A stretch of DNA of 32,000 bases from Nonlabens ponticola. Its GTDB lineage: Bacteria > Bacteroidota > Bacteroidia > Flavobacteriales > Flavobacteriaceae. The stretch is taken from contig NZ_CP034549.1 of the NCBI RefSeq assembly GCF_003966335.1, positions 1,800,001 through 1,832,000 on the forward strand, written 5' to 3'. The notes under the pieces were generated by a model, which did no database searches, was not told the origin of the DNA, and saw only the letters and a list, made by a program, of their open reading frames with translations. Shown one piece after another: positions 3,253 to 32,000 of the stretch; position 1 is the stretch's first letter; each line of letters opens with the position of its first letter. The translations under genes and the position numbers were made by a program.

Positions 3253-5388
3253 TTAATTCTCTTCTTGTTCGTCATTCTCCGTTTCAGTTTCAGGCGCGTT
3301 GTCTTTTTCTATCTGGCGTTGTAGAATATTCAACTGCTTTTGCTTTTCCTTGATCACATCCAGCTCTTTTTGAAGAGCGTCAATATTCTTGCGCTGTTGG
3401 ATAAGCAGTGGATTCTTATCGTCCTTTGCATTAAAGAATTGCAGATTGTTCTCAAGCTGACGCATCTCGTCCTGAATCTCATCGCGACGCTTGCGCAGGT
3501 AGAAACGTTCATTTTTAAAATCTCGTTCTTCACCTTCTTTGAGGCTGGATAACTTGTTCTCGTACTTGATCATTTCTGCATCGACAGCGCTCAATCCAGC
3601 TGCCGTCAATTTAGATTTTACTAGCTTGTCAAACTTATCGTGGATATGACGCTTTGAGTGAGGAACGCGACCTATGGTAGCCCATTCATCCATAATGGCT
3701 TTTACCTGAGATTGCATGGCGTCTTGATCATCTTGAGGCAACAATTCCTTGAGCTTATCATATACTTTTACTTTCTCCTCAAAGTTTGCAAGCTCCTCTT
3801 TGTTCTCTGCTTTTTTCTGGGCGTTTTTTTGATCAAAGAATGCGTTACAAGCTTTCTGGAATCGTTTCCAGATCCTGTCGCTATCCTTCCGTGGCACATG
3901 ACCTATTTTTTTCCAGTCTGCTTGAATACGTTTCATGATATCCAGCGATTCCTGAAAATTCTCTGAATCTTGATGCTGCTCTGCAATGGCAATGAGCTTC
4001 ATCTTCTTATCAAGATTTTTCTGCTGTTCCTCTTTTAAGGACTTATAGTAATCATTTTTGGCTTTATTGAATTCTCTAGTTGCCGTACGGAAGTTATTCC
4101 ATACCTGATTATTTACTTTTTTAGGCGCTGGACCAGTTTGCATAAACAGTTCACGCAACGCGTTCACTTCTTTTAAACGTTCTTGCCAATCTTTATGGGA
4201 CTTAGGCTCACTTTCTACAATGCGCTCAATCTCTGCAATAATGTTCTCCTTAATGACTTGATTCTTCTCAGCTTGTTTATCTCGTTCAGCATAGTATTCT
4301 TGACGCTTCTCATGGATCACGTCACTAGCAGCTTTGAATTCATCCCAGATTGGATCTCTCATTTCTTTGGCAACAGGACCGCTGTCTTCTTTCCACATAC
4401 GGTGTAGTTCCTGCAGCTCACGCAGTGCTTTGTGAATGTCTTGCTCCTCAGCAAGTTCCTTAGCTCTCGCAATAATCTTGTGTCTAAATTCAAGATTACG
4501 TTCAAAATCCTTATCGCGTAACTCCTTACTTAAAGAGATGTAGTCATAAAAATTCTGTACATGCAAGCGGTAATCTTCCCAGATGATATTGTAGGCATCA
4601 TGTGGTATGCTACCCGTGTTTTTCCATTCATCCTGATATTGATTGAATTTTTTGAACGTGGTTCCTATATTCTCTTCTTCATCGATTAGATTCTTTATAC
4701 CTTCAATGATAGCGCGACGTTTCTCAAGATTACTTTCTTGTTCTTTTCTAATCGCACGCTGGTGTTCACCTTTTTTCTTGCGGTATAAGCTATGTAAGTC
4801 GGTAAAAGCCTTACTGTCCTTGTTATTGTATTCAAAAGTTGATCTATCAGCTTCTGGTAAGGTTTCTTGATCAGCGGTAAACCGCTTAAGATCTGCTGCC
4901 TTTAGTTCCTCGTCTTTAAGCTTAAATGCCTTTTCAATCTCAATGGCCTGCTTTTTAAAACTATTGATAGGATATTCCTGTATCAATTCTCGCAACTCAT
5001 CAGATAGTTGAGCAATCGTCAGGTTAGAATAATCCTTTGCTTCTGGAGATTTGGAATTTTCATCTGTAGATACATCTTCCTCTTCATCCTCATCTTCATC
5101 TTCTTCGTCAACCTCGACAATAGGATCGTTGGTGGTTTCTACTTTTTTCTTCTCTTCAACAATAGCATCTTCATGTGTGCTTGAATCGTCCACAGGTGCA
5201 TCGACCTTGTTATTGCCAGGCACGGTTTTCTCGGCAGATTCTGGTTCTACCTCGATGTGTTCTTCGTTTTTGGCTTTTTCAGATTCTTCGACGATCGCTT
5301 TTTCATGCGCGTCTGGTCTGTTGGCTGCCTCTTCTTGAGAGGTTATTTTTCCATCTGCTTTAGGTTGCAGGTTGTCATTCGTTTCCAT
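3253..5388 (-). CDS. DUF349 domain-containing helical-repeat protein with an acidic N-terminal tract
   Basis: Repeated W/F-x2-xG-x-xP...W-x2-F units: WKNTGSIPHDAYNIIWEDYR, WKEDSGPVAKEMRDPIWDEFK, FMQTGPAPKKVNNQVWNNFR, WKKIGHVPRKDSDRIWKRFQ, WATIGRVPHSKRHIHDKFD. N-terminal VDEEDEDEDEEEDV run. K/E-rich throughout. Confidence 0.75.
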   Translation of the reverse strand: METNDNLQPKADGKITSQEEAANRPDAHEKAIVEESEKAKNEEHIEVEPESAEKTVPGNNKVDAPVDDSSTHEDAIVEEKKKVETTNDPIVEVDEEDEDEDEEEDVSTDENSKSPEAKDYSNLTIAQLSDELRELIQEYPINSFKKQAIEIEKAFKLKDEELKAADLKRFTADQETLPEADRSTFEYNNKDSKAFTDLHSLYRKKKGEHQRAIRKEQESNLEKRRAIIEGIKNLIDEEENIGTTFKKFNQYQDEWKNTGSIPHDAYNIIWEDYRLHVQNFYDYISLSKELRDKDFERNLEFRHKIIARAKELAEEQDIHKALRELQELHRMWKEDSGPVAKEMRDPIWDEFKAASDVIHEKRQEYYAERDKQAEKNQVIKENIIAEIERIVESEPKSHKDWQERLKEVNALRELFMQTGPAPKKVNNQVWNNFRTATREFNKAKNDYYKSLKEEQQKNLDKKMKLIAIAEQHQDSENFQESLDIMKRIQADWKKIGHVPRKDSDRIWKRFQKACNAFFDQKNAQKKAENKEELANFEEKVKVYDKLKELLPQDDQDAMQSQVKAIMDEWATIGRVPHSKRHIHDKFDKLVKSKLTAAGLSAVDAEMIKYENKLSSLKEGEERDFKNERFYLRKRRDEIQDEMRQLENNLQFFNAKDDKNPLLIQQRKNIDALQKELDVIKEKQKQLNILQRQIEKDNAPETETENDEQEEN

Positions 5389-5451: not shown

Positions 5452-6243
5452 CTAGTTATTCCACAATTCCCAGGCCTTTTCTGCTTGATGGACAAGCATC
5501 TGGTAACCGTTAGAGACTCTGGCGCCATGCTGTAAGCCCAGTTTCATAAATAGGGTAGTAGGTGGATTGTAGACCAGATCAAACAGTACGTGGCTCCCAT
5601 TTAAATGCTCATAAGGAATTGCAGGTTTACCGCTTACATCTGGATGCGTTCCCAGCGGTGTGGTATTTACAATGAGCCCTATCTGATCCAGCACATTTTT
5701 ATTAATCGATTTATAATCTATGGTGTGCTCGTCTTGTGGATCGCGACTCACTTTTAAATAAGGAATCGACAGTGCCTCCAGCGTATAAGCAATCGCCATT
5801 GATGCGCCACCAGTACCTAAAATAAGCGCGTTACTATTGATAGGCAAGAATGGTTCTAGACCTTTCCCAAAGCCATAGGCATCTGTATTATGACCTATCC
5901 ACACATTATCCTCAATGGTAATCGTATTGATGGCACCTATTTTTTGTGCCTCGTCACTCACATGGTCCATGATCTTAAAAACACTTTGCTTATACGGTAT
6001 TGTCACGTTAAGGCCTCTAATGATCTCGTGTTTTCCTTGTGTTGTGCGCTGTCGTTTGTTGTATGTTACGCTTTCGCGAAAGCTAACTAAATCATCCTCG
6101 TGCGCTATTTCAAAATTGCGGTAGTGATGATCTTTGAGCCCTAATTCCTCAAATTTATTACTGAAATAAGAGCGTGAAAAGCTATAATCCAGTCGTTCAC
6201 CAATAAGGCCAAAAATGCTATGCGGGATTTGCTTGATTTCCAT
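5452..6243 (-). CDS. aroE: shikimate dehydrogenase
   Basis: FGLIGERLDYSFS, GLNVTIPYK, NTDAYGF and LILGTGGAS (NADP-binding glycine motif). The start overlaps the upstream DUF368 gene by 26 nt. Confidence 0.9.
   Translation of the reverse strand: MEIKQIPHSIFGLIGERLDYSFSRSYFSNKFEELGLKDHHYRNFEIAHEDDLVSFRESVTYNKRQRTTQGKHEIIRGLNVTIPYKQSVFKIMDHVSDEAQKIGAINTITIEDNVWIGHNTDAYGFGKGLEPFLPINSNALILGTGGASMAIAYTLEALSIPYLKVSRDPQDEHTIDYKSINKNVLDQIGLIVNTTPLGTHPDVSGKPAIPYEHLNGSHVLFDLVYNPPTTLFMKLGLQHGARVSNGYQMLVHQAEKAWELWNN
6053..6090. repeat. palindromic element copy A, embedded in-frame in aroE
   Basis: TTTGTTGTATGTTACGCTTTCGCGAAAGCTAACTAA. It carries the CTTTCGCGAAAG core (6071-6082) plus a GT-rich left arm matching copy C (TTGTTGT..TTACG). 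Translated on the minus strand as SFRESVTYNKRQ. Confidence 0.6.
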
Positions 6244-8234: not shown

Positions 8235-9506
8235 CTACCTGTGGATTGTCTGCGTTCTGTCTGGACCTACACTAACTATTTTGATAGGAATATTGAGTTC
8301 TTTCTCAAGAAACGAGATGTAATCATTCAGCTCTTTAGGGAGCTGATCTTCAGATCTTAATTTAGTCAGGTCTTCTTTCCATCCTGGCATCTCTTCATAG
8401 ATAGGAGTAACGTTCTCTGGCTCGATATTGTATGGTAAATGCTCGATGCGTTCACCTCTATACTTATAAGCTGTTGCGACTTTGATTTTATCAAAACCAC
8501 TCATCACATCACCTTTCATCATCATTAGCTGGGTAACGCCGTTGATTTCACAAGCATATTTTAATGCAACTAGATCCAACCAGCCACATCGCCTTGCGCG
8601 TCCTGTTGTAGCGCCAAATTCATTACCTACACGTGCCATTATCTCGCCGTACTCGTCATCAAGTTCCGTTGGGAAAGGACCACTACCTACACGTGTGGTG
8701 TATGCTTTGAATATGCCGTACACTTCACCTATTTGTGTAGGTGCAACACCCAATCCGGTACAAGCACCAGCTGCTGTCGTATTAGATGATGTAACAAATG
8801 GGTAGGTTCCAAAATCTATATCAAGTAAGGATCCTTGAGCACCTTCCGCAAGAATAGACTTGCCGCTTCTTTGCGCTTGTTGCAGGTATTCTTCAGAATC
8901 TATAAAGGTGAGTTCTTTCAATTCTTTTACAGCTGCAAAAAACTCTTTTTCCAGCTCTTTGAGATCGTATTGTATATCCACATTGTGAAACCCAATCATC
9001 GCCTCGTGTTTATCTGCTAGATTGCGGTACTTTTCTTTCCAGGTAGGCAATTCAAGATCGCCTAGACGAATACCGTTTCGGCCTGTTTTGTCCATATAAG
9101 TTGGACCTATACCTTTGAGTGTAGAACCAATTTTTGCTTTACCCTTAGAGGCCTCACTGGCCGCATCCAGCAACCTGTGCGTTGGTAGGATGAGATGCGC
9201 CTTTCGCGAAAGCAATAACACCTTTTTTATATCCAGATCAAACTGTTTAAGATTGTCCAGCTCTTTCTTAAAAATCACGGGATCAATCACAACGCCATTA
9301 CCTACCACATTGATAGCTTCCTTGTGAAATATACCGCTGGGAATGGTGTGTAGGACATGCTTGATGCCGTCAAATTCTAGCGTATGACCAGCGTTGGGAC
9401 CGCCTTGAAATCTGGCAATGATGTCATAGTTGGAGGTGAGTACATCAACAATTTTTCCTTTTCCCTCGTCGCCCCATTGCAAGCCGAGCAATAAATCTAC
9501 TGCCAT
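8235..9506 (-). CDS. purA: adenylosuccinate synthase
   Basis: GLQWGDEGKGK P-loop, GGPNAGHT, TTRVGSGPFPTE and GATTGRARRCGWLD. The start codon shares 1 nt with the stop of the upstream Fur-family gene. Confidence 0.95.
   Translation of the reverse strand: MAVDLLLGLQWGDEGKGKIVDVLTSNYDIIARFQGGPNAGHTLEFDGIKHVLHTIPSGIFHKEAINVVGNGVVIDPVIFKKELDNLKQFDLDIKKVLLLSRKAHLILPTHRLLDAASEASKGKAKIGSTLKGIGPTYMDKTGRNGIRLGDLELPTWKEKYRNLADKHEAMIGFHNVDIQYDLKELEKEFFAAVKELKELTFIDSEEYLQQAQRSGKSILAEGAQGSLLDIDFGTYPFVTSSNTTAAGACTGLGVAPTQIGEVYGIFKAYTTRVGSGPFPTELDDEYGEIMARVGNEFGATTGRARRCGWLDLVALKYACEINGVTQLMMMKGDVMSGFDKIKVATAYKYRGERIEHLPYNIEPENVTPIYEEMPGWKEDLTKLRSEDQLPKELNDYISFLEKELNIPIKIVSVGPDRTQTIHR
9201..9212. repeat. 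isolated copy of the CTTTCGCGAAAG palindrome inside purA
   Basis: Exact 12-mer. On the coding strand it reads CTT TCG CGA AAG GCG = L-S-R-K-A in the conserved LLLSRKAHLILP segment. No insertion is apparent. Confidence 0.4.
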
Positions 9507-12228: not shown

Positions 12229-12270
12229 ATGTTGGTGGGTTTGTTACGCTTTCGCGAAAGCGTAATTCTT
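12229..12270. repeat. palindromic element copy B (REP-like), downstream of CotH-like gene 1 and upstream of rel
   Basis: GTTGGTGGGTTTG + perfect 22-nt palindrome TTACGCTTTCGCGAAAGCGTAA (12244-12265). It starts 24 nt beyond the minus-strand stop at 12289. Confidence 0.8.
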
Positions 12271-12288: not shown

Positions 12289-13518
12289 TTATTGCACAGA
12301 AATAGTATCCTGTTTAATTACAAATTCCTCATTGAGGTAGTCCATGCGTTGCGAAAGCCATTGTTTAAGATCTTCTACATACTCCATGTATGTTGTAAAA
12401 ATGACTCTATTAGGCCAGGTCTCTCGTGCCATCATGTGGTACTTTTTATGATTGCTGATGACAGTGGGCTCAATAATTGCAGCTTGATTATCTAGGAAGG
12501 ATAATAGGCGATCTTTTTGCTCATAAAAATAGCTATATCGCTTCTTGCGCAAGGCAATAAACTCTGGATCTTCTAAGATATACTTGAGCCATTCATTATC
12601 GTCCAGTAGGTAACCTTCGATTTCATAATTATCACTGTAATTAATATTTCCAAAGCCTATATCAAAATCCCAAACTGGACCAAATTTCAATTTTCCACCT
12701 GGCTTGTAGGTAAAGTAGACACTTGAATAAAAGTTGGCATCTTGATTACGTGATATCTCTTGAAGAATGTACCAATCCACCAGCGTCTCCATATCTACAT
12801 ACTCCTTATAAGTGCTGTAATCATTTTCATTTGAATTGAAGAAAGCCTGCTCTGTGTCTAGTATAAATTGCTTGACATCTTTGAACTCTTGATCGTCCAC
12901 TGTAATGTCAGGTTCTTTGATTTTAATTGTATATTTCTTTGTGTAAATGGAGGCGTCATCTGGTTTTAATCGCGACACGTGATCTAATTCAAGAAGGTAT
13001 CCATTATCCTTGGTAATTCTGTTTTTCTGGAGTTCTATCTTTTCTGTTACCAGGAACAATCCATGCCAGTCGCCATCTATATTGACATTAAAAAATTGAC
13101 TTTGAGGAGTGTAGGATAGTTTGCTCATGCGGCTCATCTCAAACGCCAGACTATTGCGCAACATGGTTTTATCATAATAATTTGCCAGTAGAATCCATTT
13201 TTTGGCGGGCGGCATGTTGCCTATCGCATTAGATTTATCCAGCTTCATTTGATAAGGCTTCTTTGGTGCGAGCCATGTACTGTGCCCGCGATGTCTTATT
13301 TTACCACCCAGCACTGTATTACTCAAGAATGCTTCGGGATTTTCTTGTACCGTAATTACTGTATAATCATCACGAGCAATACTATCTTGAATGTTAACTT
13401 TATGAATATCAAGCGTTGGTATAGACTTACCTGGCGTGGATAGCAATATAATTGCGGCTACCACTGCGGTGACAACTATAGCCACAGTACCTAAAATAAT
13501 CAATTTTCCTTTTTTCAT
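12289..13518 (-). CDS. CotH kinase family protein, N-terminal membrane anchor
   Basis: LLANYYDKTMLRNSLAFEMSR, NVNIDGDWHGLFLVTEKIE and VWDFDIGFGN fit CotH-family patterns. N-terminal hydrophobic helix IILGTVAIVVTAVVAAIILL. Confidence 0.7.
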   Translation of the reverse strand: MKKGKLIILGTVAIVVTAVVAAIILLSTPGKSIPTLDIHKVNIQDSIARDDYTVITVQENPEAFLSNTVLGGKIRHRGHSTWLAPKKPYQMKLDKSNAIGNMPPAKKWILLANYYDKTMLRNSLAFEMSRMSKLSYTPQSQFFNVNIDGDWHGLFLVTEKIELQKNRITKDNGYLLELDHVSRLKPDDASIYTKKYTIKIKEPDITVDDQEFKDVKQFILDTEQAFFNSNENDYSTYKEYVDMETLVDWYILQEISRNQDANFYSSVYFTYKPGGKLKFGPVWDFDIGFGNINYSDNYEIEGYLLDDNEWLKYILEDPEFIALRKKRYSYFYEQKDRLLSFLDNQAAIIEPTVISNHKKYHMMARETWPNRVIFTTYMEYVEDLKQWLSQRMDYLNEEFVIKQDTISVQ

Positions 13519-13601: not shown

Positions 13602-14846
13602 CTACTCATTTACAAATTCATTATTTAGATAATCCATGCGTTTTGTAAGCCAATCTTTAAGGTCATTTACTTCTTCCTCGTATGTCATCCGCGCGACTCT
13701 ATTAGGCCATAATTTGCGCCCCAAAAGATTGTACTTCTTATGATTTCTTTGAGCGTTTTCTTGTAGCATGTTACTGGTGTCATCAATAAATTTAATCAAT
13801 GCATCTTTCTTACTGTAAAAATAGGCATAGCGCTCTTTGCGCCTGGCTATAAATTTGGGATCATCCATGATATATTTGAGCCAGTCATTACCTTCAAAAA
13901 GTAAACCCTCTATCTTGTAGCTATTGCTATAATTGATGTTGCCAAATGCGATGTCATAATCCCAAATAGGCCCTATTTTCAATTTCTCGCCAGGCTGCCA
14001 GGTCCAGTAGACGCTGCTATAAAAACTCGCGTCGTTGTTGCGAGAGATTTCTTGAATAATGTACCAATCTACAAAACTATCCATATCTACATAATCTTTA
14101 TAGGCCGTGTAATTATCTTGTTTAGCATTGAGAAATGCATCCTCAGTTTTCAATAGAAAATCTTCTATTTGTTGATACTCAGGCTCACCTGATACAAGAT
14201 TGGGTTCTTTTATTTTAAATTGATAATGTTCAGTTTTTACATAAACATCTTCCTCGTCCATCCTGTCTTTAGGCTCTATTTCCAGTAAGAAGGTGTTCTT
14301 TTTTGGTATTCTATTTTTTTGCAACTCAACTTTTTCAGTAAGTAGGTAGAGCCCGCGTGAGTCACCATTAAGTGTAACCTCATAAAATTTACTATCAGGT
14401 GTAAATTCTAATTGACTTAATCTGCTTAATTCAAAGGCTAGACTATTGCGCAGCATAGTCTTGTCATAATAATTAGCAAGTAATATCCATTTTTTGGCTG
14501 CTGGAATTCCTGCAATGGATACTGATTCATTCAGTTTTATTTGATATGGTTTTTTGGCAGTTTGCCAAGTTGTGTTACCGCGACCTCTTATTTTTCCTTC
14601 AATAACATTTCCAAAAAGAGCATTTGTTGAGTCTTTGAATGTAAAGACAGTCTCAACATAATCATCCTTGGGCACCACTTCTGCAAGATCAGGATTATCA
14701 TCATCTATTTGAAAACTTATGTGCCCGATAAAACTATTTGCTTTACTCTTTGCGATTTCTTGTTGCGATATGCAATGTGTTGAGATCGAGGCACAAAACA
14801 TAAGTAATAGAAGTTTTGATTTGCCGTAAGCTATTTCCTTCTTCAT
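13602..14846 (-). CDS. CotH kinase family protein, signal peptide (tandem paralog)
   Basis: Collinear with 12289..13518 at roughly 55-60% identity by eye: LLANYYDKTMLRNSLAFELSR, LNGDSRGLYLLTEKVE, IWDYDIAFGN. N-terminal KSKLLLLMFCASISTHC signal-like region. Confidence 0.7.
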   Translation of the reverse strand: MKKEIAYGKSKLLLLMFCASISTHCISQQEIAKSKANSFIGHISFQIDDDNPDLAEVVPKDDYVETVFTFKDSTNALFGNVIEGKIRGRGNTTWQTAKKPYQIKLNESVSIAGIPAAKKWILLANYYDKTMLRNSLAFELSRLSQLEFTPDSKFYEVTLNGDSRGLYLLTEKVELQKNRIPKKNTFLLEIEPKDRMDEEDVYVKTEHYQFKIKEPNLVSGEPEYQQIEDFLLKTEDAFLNAKQDNYTAYKDYVDMDSFVDWYIIQEISRNNDASFYSSVYWTWQPGEKLKIGPIWDYDIAFGNINYSNSYKIEGLLFEGNDWLKYIMDDPKFIARRKERYAYFYSKKDALIKFIDDTSNMLQENAQRNHKKYNLLGRKLWPNRVARMTYEEEVNDLKDWLTKRMDYLNNEFVNE

Positions 14847-16330: not shown

Positions 16331-16378
16331 GTTGCAGTTGGGTTGTTGTGATTACGCTTTCGCGAAAGCATAATCACA
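16331..16378. repeat. palindromic element copy C (REP-like), downstream of murA
   Basis: GT-rich GTTGCAGTTGGGTTGTTG followed by the 32-nt palindrome TGTGATTACGCTTTCGCGAAAGCATAATCACA (16347-16378; 15 of 16 pairs). It begins 12 nt after the murA stop. Confidence 0.8.
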
Positions 16379-19823: not shown

Positions 19824-19886
19824 GTGTTGATTGGTGTTGGGTTTGTACGCTTTCGCGAAAGCGTAATCACAACCAATTACAACCAT
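19824..19886. repeat. palindromic element copy D (REP-like), most complete copy, in a convergent gap
   Basis: GTGTTGATTGGTGTTGGGTTTG + TACGCTTTCGCGAAAGCGTA (19846-19865, perfect 20-nt palindrome) + ATCACAACCAATTACAACCAT. The GT-rich and AC-rich arms are imperfectly complementary. Confidence 0.8.
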
Positions 19887-19914: not shown

Positions 19915-19937
19915 CTTGTAAGATAGGAAGCTAAAAT

Positions 19938-24198: not shown

Positions 24199-24225
24199 AG
24201 CTTTTTCTTTTAAAGATAGTATAAG

Positions 24226-24260
24226 TTAGCTTTCGCGAAAGCGTAATAACAACAACTTAA
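24226..24260. repeat. palindromic element copy E (REP-like), downstream of the aldehyde dehydrogenase gene
   Basis: TTAGCTTTCGCGAAAGCGTAATAACAACAACTTAA. 14-nt perfect palindrome at 24229-24242. The left arm lacks one C relative to copies B and D. AC-rich right arm. Confidence 0.75.
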
Positions 24261-31267: not shown

Positions 31268-32000
31268 TGCAATCTTCTATATACATCGTTTGCTATTACT
31301 GGCCACCGGCTGGCGGACCTGGCGTGCAGCGATGGTTGACAATGTCTCATTATTTAGTTGAATCTAATTACCACGTCACCGTCGTGATTCCAGAAAATGC
31401 TGATTACCCAGTCACAGATGCAAGCCTGACCAATGACATAAATCCAAAAATCACCATCAAAAAAATTGCCATCAAGGAACCAACCCGATGGATAAAAAAG
31501 ATTCTAGGTGGTAAGACTGCACAGCTACAAAAAGGTATCTTAAATAAAAAACCTGGACTGCTGGAACGCGCATTACTTTGGGTGCGTGGTAATTATTTTA
31601 TTCCAGATGCTCGTAAATCATGGGCTGATAGAGTAGTGCAGGAGCTAGAAAATGATTCTGCTTTCGCGAAAGCAAAAACTCTCATAACGACTGGACCACC
31701 ACATTCTGTACATCTCGTAGGATTGAAATTAAAAAAGAGGTTTACTAAAAACATCGAGTGGATCGCGGACTTTAGGGATCCATGGACTACCATAGGCTAT
31801 CACGACAAATTGCGATTATCGCTAAATGCTCAAGAAAAACACTTAAAACTTGAAAAGCAAGTGCTAGACAGCGCAGATAAATTGCTGGTAACAAGTCCTA
31901 CAACAAGAGCAGAATTTGAAGCCAAAACCAAAACAGCAATAACTGTCATCACCAATGGCTTCAACATAGAACCTAACAATACATCACAACCAGCTGGAAA
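31267..32000 (+). CDS. glycosyltransferase family 4-like protein, C-terminus beyond the window
   Basis: Not in the ORF track because it has no stop in the window. My translation from the ATG at 31267 (shares 1 nt with the YfhO stop TGA) is MQSSIYIVCYYWPPAGGPGVQRWLTMSHYLVESNYHVTVVIPEN...TTGPPHSVHLVGLKLKKRF...FRDPWTT, and the frame stays open to nt 32000. Confidence 0.6.
   Translation, partial: MQSSIYIVCYYWPPAGGPGVQRWLTMSHYLVESNYHVTVVIPENADYPVTDASLTNDINPKITIKKIAIKEPTRWIKKILGGKTAQLQKGILNKKPGLLERALLWVRGNYFIPDARKSWADRVVQELENDSAFAKAKTLITTGPPHSVHLVGLKLKKRFTKNIEWIADFRDPWTTIGYHDKLRLSLNAQEKHLKLEKQVLDSADKLLVTSPTTRAEFEAKTKTAITVITNGFNIEPNNTSQPAG
31659..31674. repeat. copy of the palindrome core inside the GT4 gene
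   Basis: TGCTTTCGCGAAAGCA is a 16-nt perfect palindrome containing the exact 12-mer. It reads TCT GCT TTC GCG AAA GCA = S-A-F-A-K-A. Confidence 0.4.

Follow-up and report, generated by a model that had tools for sequence, protein, structure and literature searches.

Why does a perfect DNA palindrome lie inside the coding sequence of a housekeeping enzyme? The question is raised by the aroE gene of Nonlabens ponticola, which lies in a 32-kb stretch of contig NZ_CP034549.1 (positions 1,800,001 to 1,832,000; hereafter the window, with coordinates counted from its first base). The gene occupies an open reading frame (ORF) at 5452–6243 on the minus strand and encodes a shikimate dehydrogenase of 263 amino acids, identified by Pfam PF08501 (Shikimate_dh_N, 2e-17) and by matches to PDB shikimate dehydrogenases down to E = 6e-37. 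Its best named relatives all belong to Nonlabens, at 65–78% identity. The plus strand at 6070–6083 reads GCTTTCGCGAAAGC, a perfect 14-nt palindrome, and the coding strand there, AGC TTT CGC GAA AGC GTA, is translated as S54 F55 R56 E57 S58 V59 in the protein context ...DDLVSFRESVTYNKRQRTTQGKHEIIRGLNVTIPYK. A first-pass annotation took this palindrome for an in-frame insertion comparable to the Rickettsia palindromic elements (RPEs). Our analysis suggests that it is probably one copy of a lineage-specific, iterated 16-bp word, CGCTTTCGCGAAAGCG, kept up by selection on the DNA word as such, or by a drive that resembles selection.

Seven copies of the 12-nt core of the palindrome, CTTTCGCGAAAG, are spread over the window, at 6071, 9201, 12249, 16357, 19850, 24230, and 31661. 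Dinucleotide shuffles with one mismatch allowed gave an expectation of 0.12 matches, and none of 100 shuffles reached seven, indicating that the observation of a recurrent palindrome is correct and far beyond chance. Three copies are intragenic (aroE, purA, and a glycosyltransferase-like ORF), and the other four are intergenic. The copies are as follows:

6069–6084, aroE copy of the 16-mer, plus strand CGCTTTCGCGAAAGCt, a 15/16 match; the coding strand reads aGC TTT CGC GAA AGC G
6066–6088, extended aroE copy, TTACGCTTTCGCGAAAGCTAACT, 23 nt that are the exact reverse complement of the intergenic copy at 24224–24246
9201–9212, core copy in purA (8235–9506, minus strand), CTT TCG CGA AAG encoding L S R K of LSRKAH, with no indel
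12247–12262, intergenic, perfect 16-mer, 28 nt past the stop codon of a CotH-family gene and 70 nt upstream of the relA/spoT start
16355–16370, intergenic, 15/16 match, 37 nt past the stop codon of an EPSP-synthase-family gene, with long GT-rich and AC-rich arms
19848–19863, intergenic, perfect 16-mer, 26 nt past the stop codon of a redoxin-domain gene, between convergent genes
24228–24243, intergenic, 15/16 match, 70 nt past the stop codon of an aldehyde dehydrogenase gene, sharing 23 nt with the aroE copy
31659–31674, core copy in the plus-strand glycosyltransferase-like ORF that runs from 31267 to the end of the window, GCT TTC GCG AAA GCA encoding A F A K A

The four intergenic copies, 26–70 nt past stop codons, have longer arms, TTACG...CGTAA followed by GT-rich and AC-rich stretches. 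The first-pass annotation had assigned the aroE palindrome to a repeat family and had described its copy as longer than the core, and both points hold: the aroE copy has family-like flanks, it matches 24224–24246 over 23 nt, and its GT-rich arm resembles that of the intergenic copy at 16357. The CotH-kinase family is itself represented by tandem paralogues (12289–13518 and 13602–14846) with ~72% DNA identity over 300 nt at an offset of 1292 nt.

The family was followed beyond the window in 12 Nonlabens-clade loci obtained from an AroE search of genome contigs, three deeper relatives with a long AroE, and, as an outgroup, 24 loci of other Flavobacteriaceae (440 kb) from the same search. The conserved unit is the perfect 16-bp palindrome. 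Clade DNA (283 kb, 15 genomes) contains 55 cores and 40 perfect 16-mers, or about one core per 5 kb, and neither core nor 16-mer occurs in the 440 kb of outgroup DNA. The mismatch spectrum of the 16-mer in the clade falls from 40 perfect copies to 16 with one mismatch, mostly at the outermost base, and then to 4, 4, and 7 with two, three, and four; the corresponding outgroup counts for zero to four mismatches are 0, 0, 0, 2, and 20. So few degenerate copies are unlike the decaying copies of a mobile element, which would leave a long degenerate tail. By location, 31 of the 55 cores are intragenic (16 distinct non-aroE copies plus 15 orthologous aroE copies), 21 are intergenic, and three are ambiguous. 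Intragenic copies use all three reading frames, yielding AFAKA, RFRES, and LSRK, and the intergenic copy, about 73 nt upstream of relA/spoT, is kept as an ortholog in seven clade genomes. A literature search that included full-text queries for TTTCGCGAAA returned no relevant description of the word in Nonlabens or Flavobacteria, within a searchable literature that is incomplete.

Within aroE, TTT CGC GAA AGC is identical at the same position in 16 of 16 sampled Nonlabens-clade genomes, including a deeper sixteenth. An alignment of 15 aroE genes has 91 columns with an invariant amino acid whose codon is degenerate; only seven of these use a single codon, and four of the seven are the consecutive TTT CGC GAA AGC. 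At the other invariant columns arginine is mostly AGA and serine uses two to five codons, with CGC and AGC in the minority. The valine codon directly after the word varies (GTA, GTC, GTG, GTT). The run of single-codon columns next to a varying valine codon implies that constraint acts on the 16 bases and not on the protein. On these alignments, the palindrome in aroE is conserved at the DNA level beyond codon preference.

The same data bear on the simplest alternative, that nothing special has happened and that protein constraint on RFRES plus codon bias account for aroE, the window copies being due to chance or to ordinary terminators. RFRESV is conserved as protein, and TTT and GAA are preferred codons. 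However, CGC and AGC, minority codons at other invariant arginine and serine columns, are fixed here in 16 genomes; the window holds seven copies against ~0.1 expected and the outgroup none; and it is the word that accounts for the AFAKA and FRES peptides, rather than the peptides for the word. We give this explanation practically no credence, and chance or codon bias as the source of the word is refuted by the shuffle counts, the outgroup absence, and the aroE codon test.

Orthologs of other word-bearing genes reveal how the word enters coding sequence. In purA, the (L/I)SRKAH peptide is invariant across the family while its codons vary freely; in 22 other flavobacterial purA genes the codons differ, and among the genes compared only that of the window genome spells CTT TCG CGA AAG, a 12-nt core made by synonymous choices. 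In pfk, gap, and a BadF/BcrAD-type kinase gene, some clade genomes carry the perfect word (AFAKA) and others encode AYAKA, AFANA, AFKKA, AFEKA, or SFAVA at equal length. The pfk orthologs include intermediates with one to three mismatches to the word, and some sites other than that in aroE turn over. No length change accompanies the word in any of the four testable genes other than aroE (purA, pfk, gap, and the BadF-type kinase), and such substitution without indel indicates that in-frame insertion is not the normal entry route of the family. The effect on proteins is evident from peptide counts in ORFs, which include shadow frames: AFAKA occurs 22 times in the clade and never in the outgroup, FRES 22 times against three, and nearly all clade occurrences are word-encoded. 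The conservation of RFRES and AFAKA in these proteins is a by-product of the DNA word and not a protein motif.

The aroE copy itself has a more complicated context. AroE is long for its family (263 amino acids against 243–252 in other Flavobacteriaceae), and, as proposed at first pass, the linker before the GLNVTIPYK motif is shorter in flavobacterial relatives, which have a 13-column gap between the FRESV region and GLNVTIPYK. The 83 profile positions of Pfam Shikimate_dh_N stretch over 96 AroE residues, and at this position the PDB homologues 5dzs and 3fbt are shorter, with gaps of 11 and 8 residues, respectively. The additional codons are located as follows:

6028–6066, minus strand, codons of the 13 extra residues T60–H72 (TYNKRQRTTQGKH), A+C-rich on the coding strand, directly 3' of the motif

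The extra segment starts two codons after the word and measures 13 residues in the clade and nine in lineage L037; relatives without the palindrome family also lack it. Its sequence differs wholly between deep lineages (TYNKRQRTTQGKH, ENGQLTDSS, and KNDFLPTAQDKPK), whereas the word is identical in all. In an AlphaFold2 model (mean predicted local distance difference test, pLDDT, 95; 93 for the extra block), word residues S54–S58 fall inside a helix spanning 51–58, which this model and a HMMER alignment to solved structures identify as the native alpha2 common to every AroE. Residues 59–72 are modelled as a small beta-hairpin (strands 61–62 and 67–68) preceding beta3.

The first-pass annotation had expected an in-frame palindromic insertion in a surface loop, with a gap in orthologs exactly over the palindrome-encoded residues and a behaviour resembling that of RPEs. 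What survives of this is that a gap exists and that ~13 extra residues adjoin the motif; the gap lies beside the motif codons and not over them, the motif codons lie outside the extra segment, no clade member lacks the motif, and the other genes show no indel. The loop placement is contradicted by the location of S54–S58 in alpha2 and by the confidently modelled beta-hairpin formed by the extra residues. RPE-like behaviour is not supported either, with a unit of 16–22 nt instead of ~150 bp and no length change in four of four other genes. The 13-residue beta-hairpin is a clade-specific addition, and the candidate explanations for its position beside the motif are a remnant of an element arm, an indel promoted by the palindrome, and coincidence. 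On the sequence evidence, the aroE event, whatever its nature, is single and ancient and predates the whole clade.

A second alternative shifts the first-pass idea to the base of the clade. A hairpin element like the RPEs or the repetitive extragenic palindromes (REPs), composed of a GT-rich arm, the core, and an AC-rich arm, would have been inserted in frame between beta2 and beta3 of aroE and then retained, bringing in the core and the AC-rich arm that now encodes the extra residues. Such an origin would be compatible with present-day selection on the word family. It is attractive in that the 9–13 extra residues start two codons past the motif, only in genomes with the palindrome family, and in a segment that is otherwise constant (17–18 residues) in outgroups and PDB homologues, where a chance indel would be expected about 1 time in 10 by rough estimate. 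Both aroE flanks also have the composition of intergenic arms: A+C-rich outward composition is 0.73 and 0.69, compared with 0.68 for intergenic copies and 0.57 for other intragenic copies. The 23-nt identity to one intergenic copy and the arm similarity to the copy at 16357 point the same way, and the literature knows short REPs inside genes, RPE-4 and RPE-6 among them, as well as CGTC-type REPs in Bacteroidetes (PMC3733652). Yet the motif residues belong to alpha2 of every AroE, so that an insertion must also have replaced the old helix. Indels are found at none of the four other testable intragenic sites, copies within genes consist of the 16-mer with no long arms, and the extra segment differs in sequence and length among deep lineages that share an identical core. 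Neither a GTAG/CGTC tag, nor a target duplication, nor a clean insertion polymorphism was found in the compared loci, and because the event is single, the co-occurrence of word and extra residues is statistically light. We therefore consider an ancient insertion, or an indel promoted by the palindrome, possible but unlikely.

Hairpin structure separates the intergenic copies from the intragenic ones. At least 15 of the 21 intergenic clade copies lie 7–37 nt past a stop codon and have longer stems; across the family, the perfect palindrome reaches at most ~22–24 nt. No covariation occurs within the 16-mer, while the outer arms of intergenic copies covary (ttccg/cggaa, ttacg/cgtaa), a contrast suggesting sequence-specific recognition of the core, with a hairpin added where the sequence is free. 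A third alternative would place function in RNA: a hairpin with stem CGCUUU/AAAGCG and loop CGCG, recognised by an RNase or some RNA-binding protein, might protect 3' ends in intergenic positions and cause processing or pausing in the aroE mRNA, the palindromic word being present in the transcript from either strand. The position of most intergenic copies just past stops and the compensatory changes in their stems are in its favor, and REPs are thought to act in this way (PMC3733652). Zero covariation inside the 16-mer implies in turn that sequence is kept and not pairing. Window palindromes have no T-tail, and no Rfam family was matched in the window. In genes the core alone forms a weak hairpin, with 52-nt folds of -5.8 kcal/mol for the window aroE and about -8 to -13 for most orthologues (range -4.5 to -13.2). 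Even chromosomal spacing and copies in phage structural genes, both described below, would also be unexpected for an mRNA signal, and we judge an RNA-level role improbable. As ordinary terminators the palindromes are ruled out, having no T-tails and a neighboring gene with its own terminator at 19917–19891. That canonical T-tailed hairpin, separate from the copy at 19848–19863, serves the other convergent gene.

Successive window copies are 3130, 3048, 4108, 3493, 4380, and 7431 nt apart, and the minimum of 3048 nt is larger than expected at random (P = 0.003). In eight diverse clade genomes spacing is likewise more even than random (coefficient of variation 0.50 versus ~0.87, P ~1e-4), which is only suggestive because the loci share orthologous sites and center on aroE. 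Viral DNA carries the word too. The 16-mer is rare in IMG/VR (40 stretches), where low-G+C phage or prophage contigs hold 2–6 copies at about one per 5–6 kb, some of them inside terminase or portal genes. PHROGs annotation of these contigs recovers portal, large terminase, head protease, major head, tail sheath, and baseplate genes. Representative copies in phage or prophage loci are:

L060, copies at 4127, 5887, and 10119
L077, copies at 1289, 7849, and 9088
L046 and other IMG/VR loci, further copies

A local transcription-factor operator for aroE is ruled out, since genes with no relation to aroE, structural genes of phages among them, contain the word as well. Sites of the parS or Noc type were set aside on the grounds that the spacing of the TTTC/GAAA half-sites differs and such sites have far lower copy numbers.

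One palindrome also coincides with a break in gene order. A synteny break between close relatives begins exactly at the palindrome past an SSF transporter gene (19442 in L002 and 19304 in L003, versus ~19446 in L001), and a comparison aimed at MITE-like insertion polymorphism showed that the DNA downstream of it is wholly different between the relatives. From this alignment, palindromes may mark rearrangement junctions. Around aroE itself, the first 26 nt of the gene (6218–6243) overlap the 3' end of a VCA0040-like (undecaprenyl-phosphate translocase-like) gene upstream; aroE is preceded by two paralogues of this kind, in what appears to be an operon conserved across the clade. Downstream lies a gene for a DUF349 protein (3253–5388, minus strand, 711 amino acids) whose N-terminal part (5051–5388) holds a strongly acidic, low-complexity stretch, EEDEDEDEEED.

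We hypothesize that the word settles wherever it is tolerated. In genes it would occupy any frame giving an acceptable peptide (AFAKA, (R)FRES, LSRK), and between genes it would sit at the tip of longer hairpins just past stop codons, where it may additionally act as a hairpin. The aroE copy would occupy codons of helix alpha2, frozen there since before the clade diversified. We infer that the reader of the word is a strict, sequence-specific protein, probably a dimer, which recognises it in double-stranded form and whose function would need about one site every few kb; candidate functions are a tag for DNA uptake or recombination, a site linked to a methyltransferase, and a nucleoid-organising site. 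The first of these is our leading specific guess, because competence with a preference for own DNA occurs in the family (PMC7965970) and because highly iterated palindrome 1 (HIP1) of cyanobacteria has been linked to transformation (bioRxiv 10.1101/2024.09.10.611283). More boldly, and tentatively enough that we stop short of calling it probable, CGCTTTCGCGAAAGCG could be a functional genome-wide signal and the first HIP- or uptake-like word in Bacteroidota, with a dedicated reader protein that needs it every 3–7 kb, and a constraint that freezes five codons of the essential aroE for as long as the genus has existed, reshapes peptide usage (AFAKA, FRES), and imprints the phages of the clade, while the AroE hairpin may stem from an A+C-rich flank of the word.

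Several observations weigh against a maintained word. The clade sample amounts to ~0.3 Mb, for the most part from the surroundings of aroE, with orthologous sites common to several of the genomes, so that the figures for density and spacing are estimates. Function is inferred from the pattern of occurrence alone. The uptake sequences known so far lack palindromic symmetry, and HIP1, at only 8 bp, is much denser. The aroE copy is unlike the other intragenic copies in being clade-universal, in having intergenic-like flanks (0.73, 0.69), and in adjoining the largest clade-specific indel of AroE, properties that an inserted element would explain no less well. Finally, the L003 copy upstream of relA/spoT (~3880–3900) is scrambled at 9 of 18 positions between flanks identical to those of L001 (3935–3965), so that simple turnover by point mutation is insufficient. 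From the aligned bases, gradual decay seems a poorer description of this scrambling than a targeted or multi-base event. L003 has a second copy ~150–200 nt from the scrambled palindrome, after a deletion.

Hyper-abundant short words such as HIP1 and the uptake sequences count among the features of bacterial genomes that are understood least, and to their few independent examples the Nonlabens word would add one. Its 16-bp length reduces the chance background to essentially zero, and a small clade, close relatives without the word, and its presence in both housekeeping genes and phages allow clean comparative and experimental tests. The word raises the questions of which protein reads it, whether it marks self-DNA for uptake or repair, and how far a DNA signal can dictate protein sequence. 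Annotators should treat RFRES and AFAKA peptides as by-products of the word.

Compared with known systems, the aroE copy resembles RPEs of the RPE-1 type in being a palindromic repeat translated in frame in a housekeeping enzyme, beside a lineage-specific extra segment. RPEs are ~150 bp long, each encodes a conserved peptide, and they leave clean ortholog gaps across many genes (PMC10969869). The Nonlabens word differs in its unit of 16–22 nt, in the absence of a gap in four of four other tested genes, and in an extra AroE segment that is not conserved in sequence; it presents neither a 100–150 bp element with a conserved peptide nor repeated in-frame insertion in unrelated genes.

The intergenic copies, as many-copy short stem-loops downstream of genes, resemble REPs. 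We know of no transposase linked to the word; no tyrosine transposase of the REP-associated (RAYT) type is encoded in the 32-kb window, and the flanks of clade word copies carry no consistent GTAG or CGTC end tag. REPs are defined as imperfect palindromes of 20–40 nt, in high copy number and predominantly extragenic. They are short stem-loops, some of them intragenic and translated, RPE-4 and RPE-6 are short, and CGTC-type REPs occur in Bacteroidetes (PMC3733652). In contrast to REPs, about half of the word copies are intragenic, and these replace codons one for one without interrupting the ORF.

Uptake sequences were reportedly found by Karlin et al. in 1996 to be evenly spaced. One third to two thirds of their copies are intragenic, in frames that give tolerable peptides; these peptides are enriched, and the encoded tripeptides are doubled in frequency (PMC2817400). 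Elsewhere in the Flavobacteriaceae sensu lato, some members are known to be naturally competent and to prefer their own DNA (PMC7965970). Like the uptake signal sequences (USS) of Pasteurellaceae and the DNA uptake sequences (DUS) of Neisseriaceae, which have hundreds of near-perfect copies, the Nonlabens word has few degenerate copies, forms intergenic hairpins past genes, and enters genes by substitution. USS and DUS are asymmetric 9–12-mers, whereas the Nonlabens word is itself palindromic and its density ~4–5 times lower. Accumulation of the uptake-sequence type, with substitution into genes, peptide enrichment, and few degenerate copies, is nonetheless what the word displays.

HIP1 (GCGATCGC) differs from the Nonlabens word in length (8 bp versus 16) and density (up to one per gene versus ~1 per 5 kb), and the Nonlabens word belongs to a different phylum and to one genus-level clade, with intergenic copies that have extended hairpin arms past stops. 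To our knowledge the Nonlabens word also has no cognate methyltransferase, unlike HIP1. In other respects the two are alike: each is a perfect palindrome, hugely over-represented lineage-wide, found in coding sequence in all frames and in non-coding DNA, kept at orthologous sites beyond codon preference, and non-randomly spaced. Conservation of HIP1 goes beyond codon effects and holds in every frame (PMC5861425), and its function is debated between methyltransferases, nucleoid structure, and transformation (PMC5861425, PMC4390886, bioRxiv 10.1101/2024.09.10.611283), with the most recent link being to transformation (bioRxiv 10.1101/2024.09.10.611283). The Nonlabens word thus displays three marks of a HIP-like sequence: it is over-represented, it is found outside genes as well as in every coding frame, and codon preference does not explain its conservation at orthologous sites.

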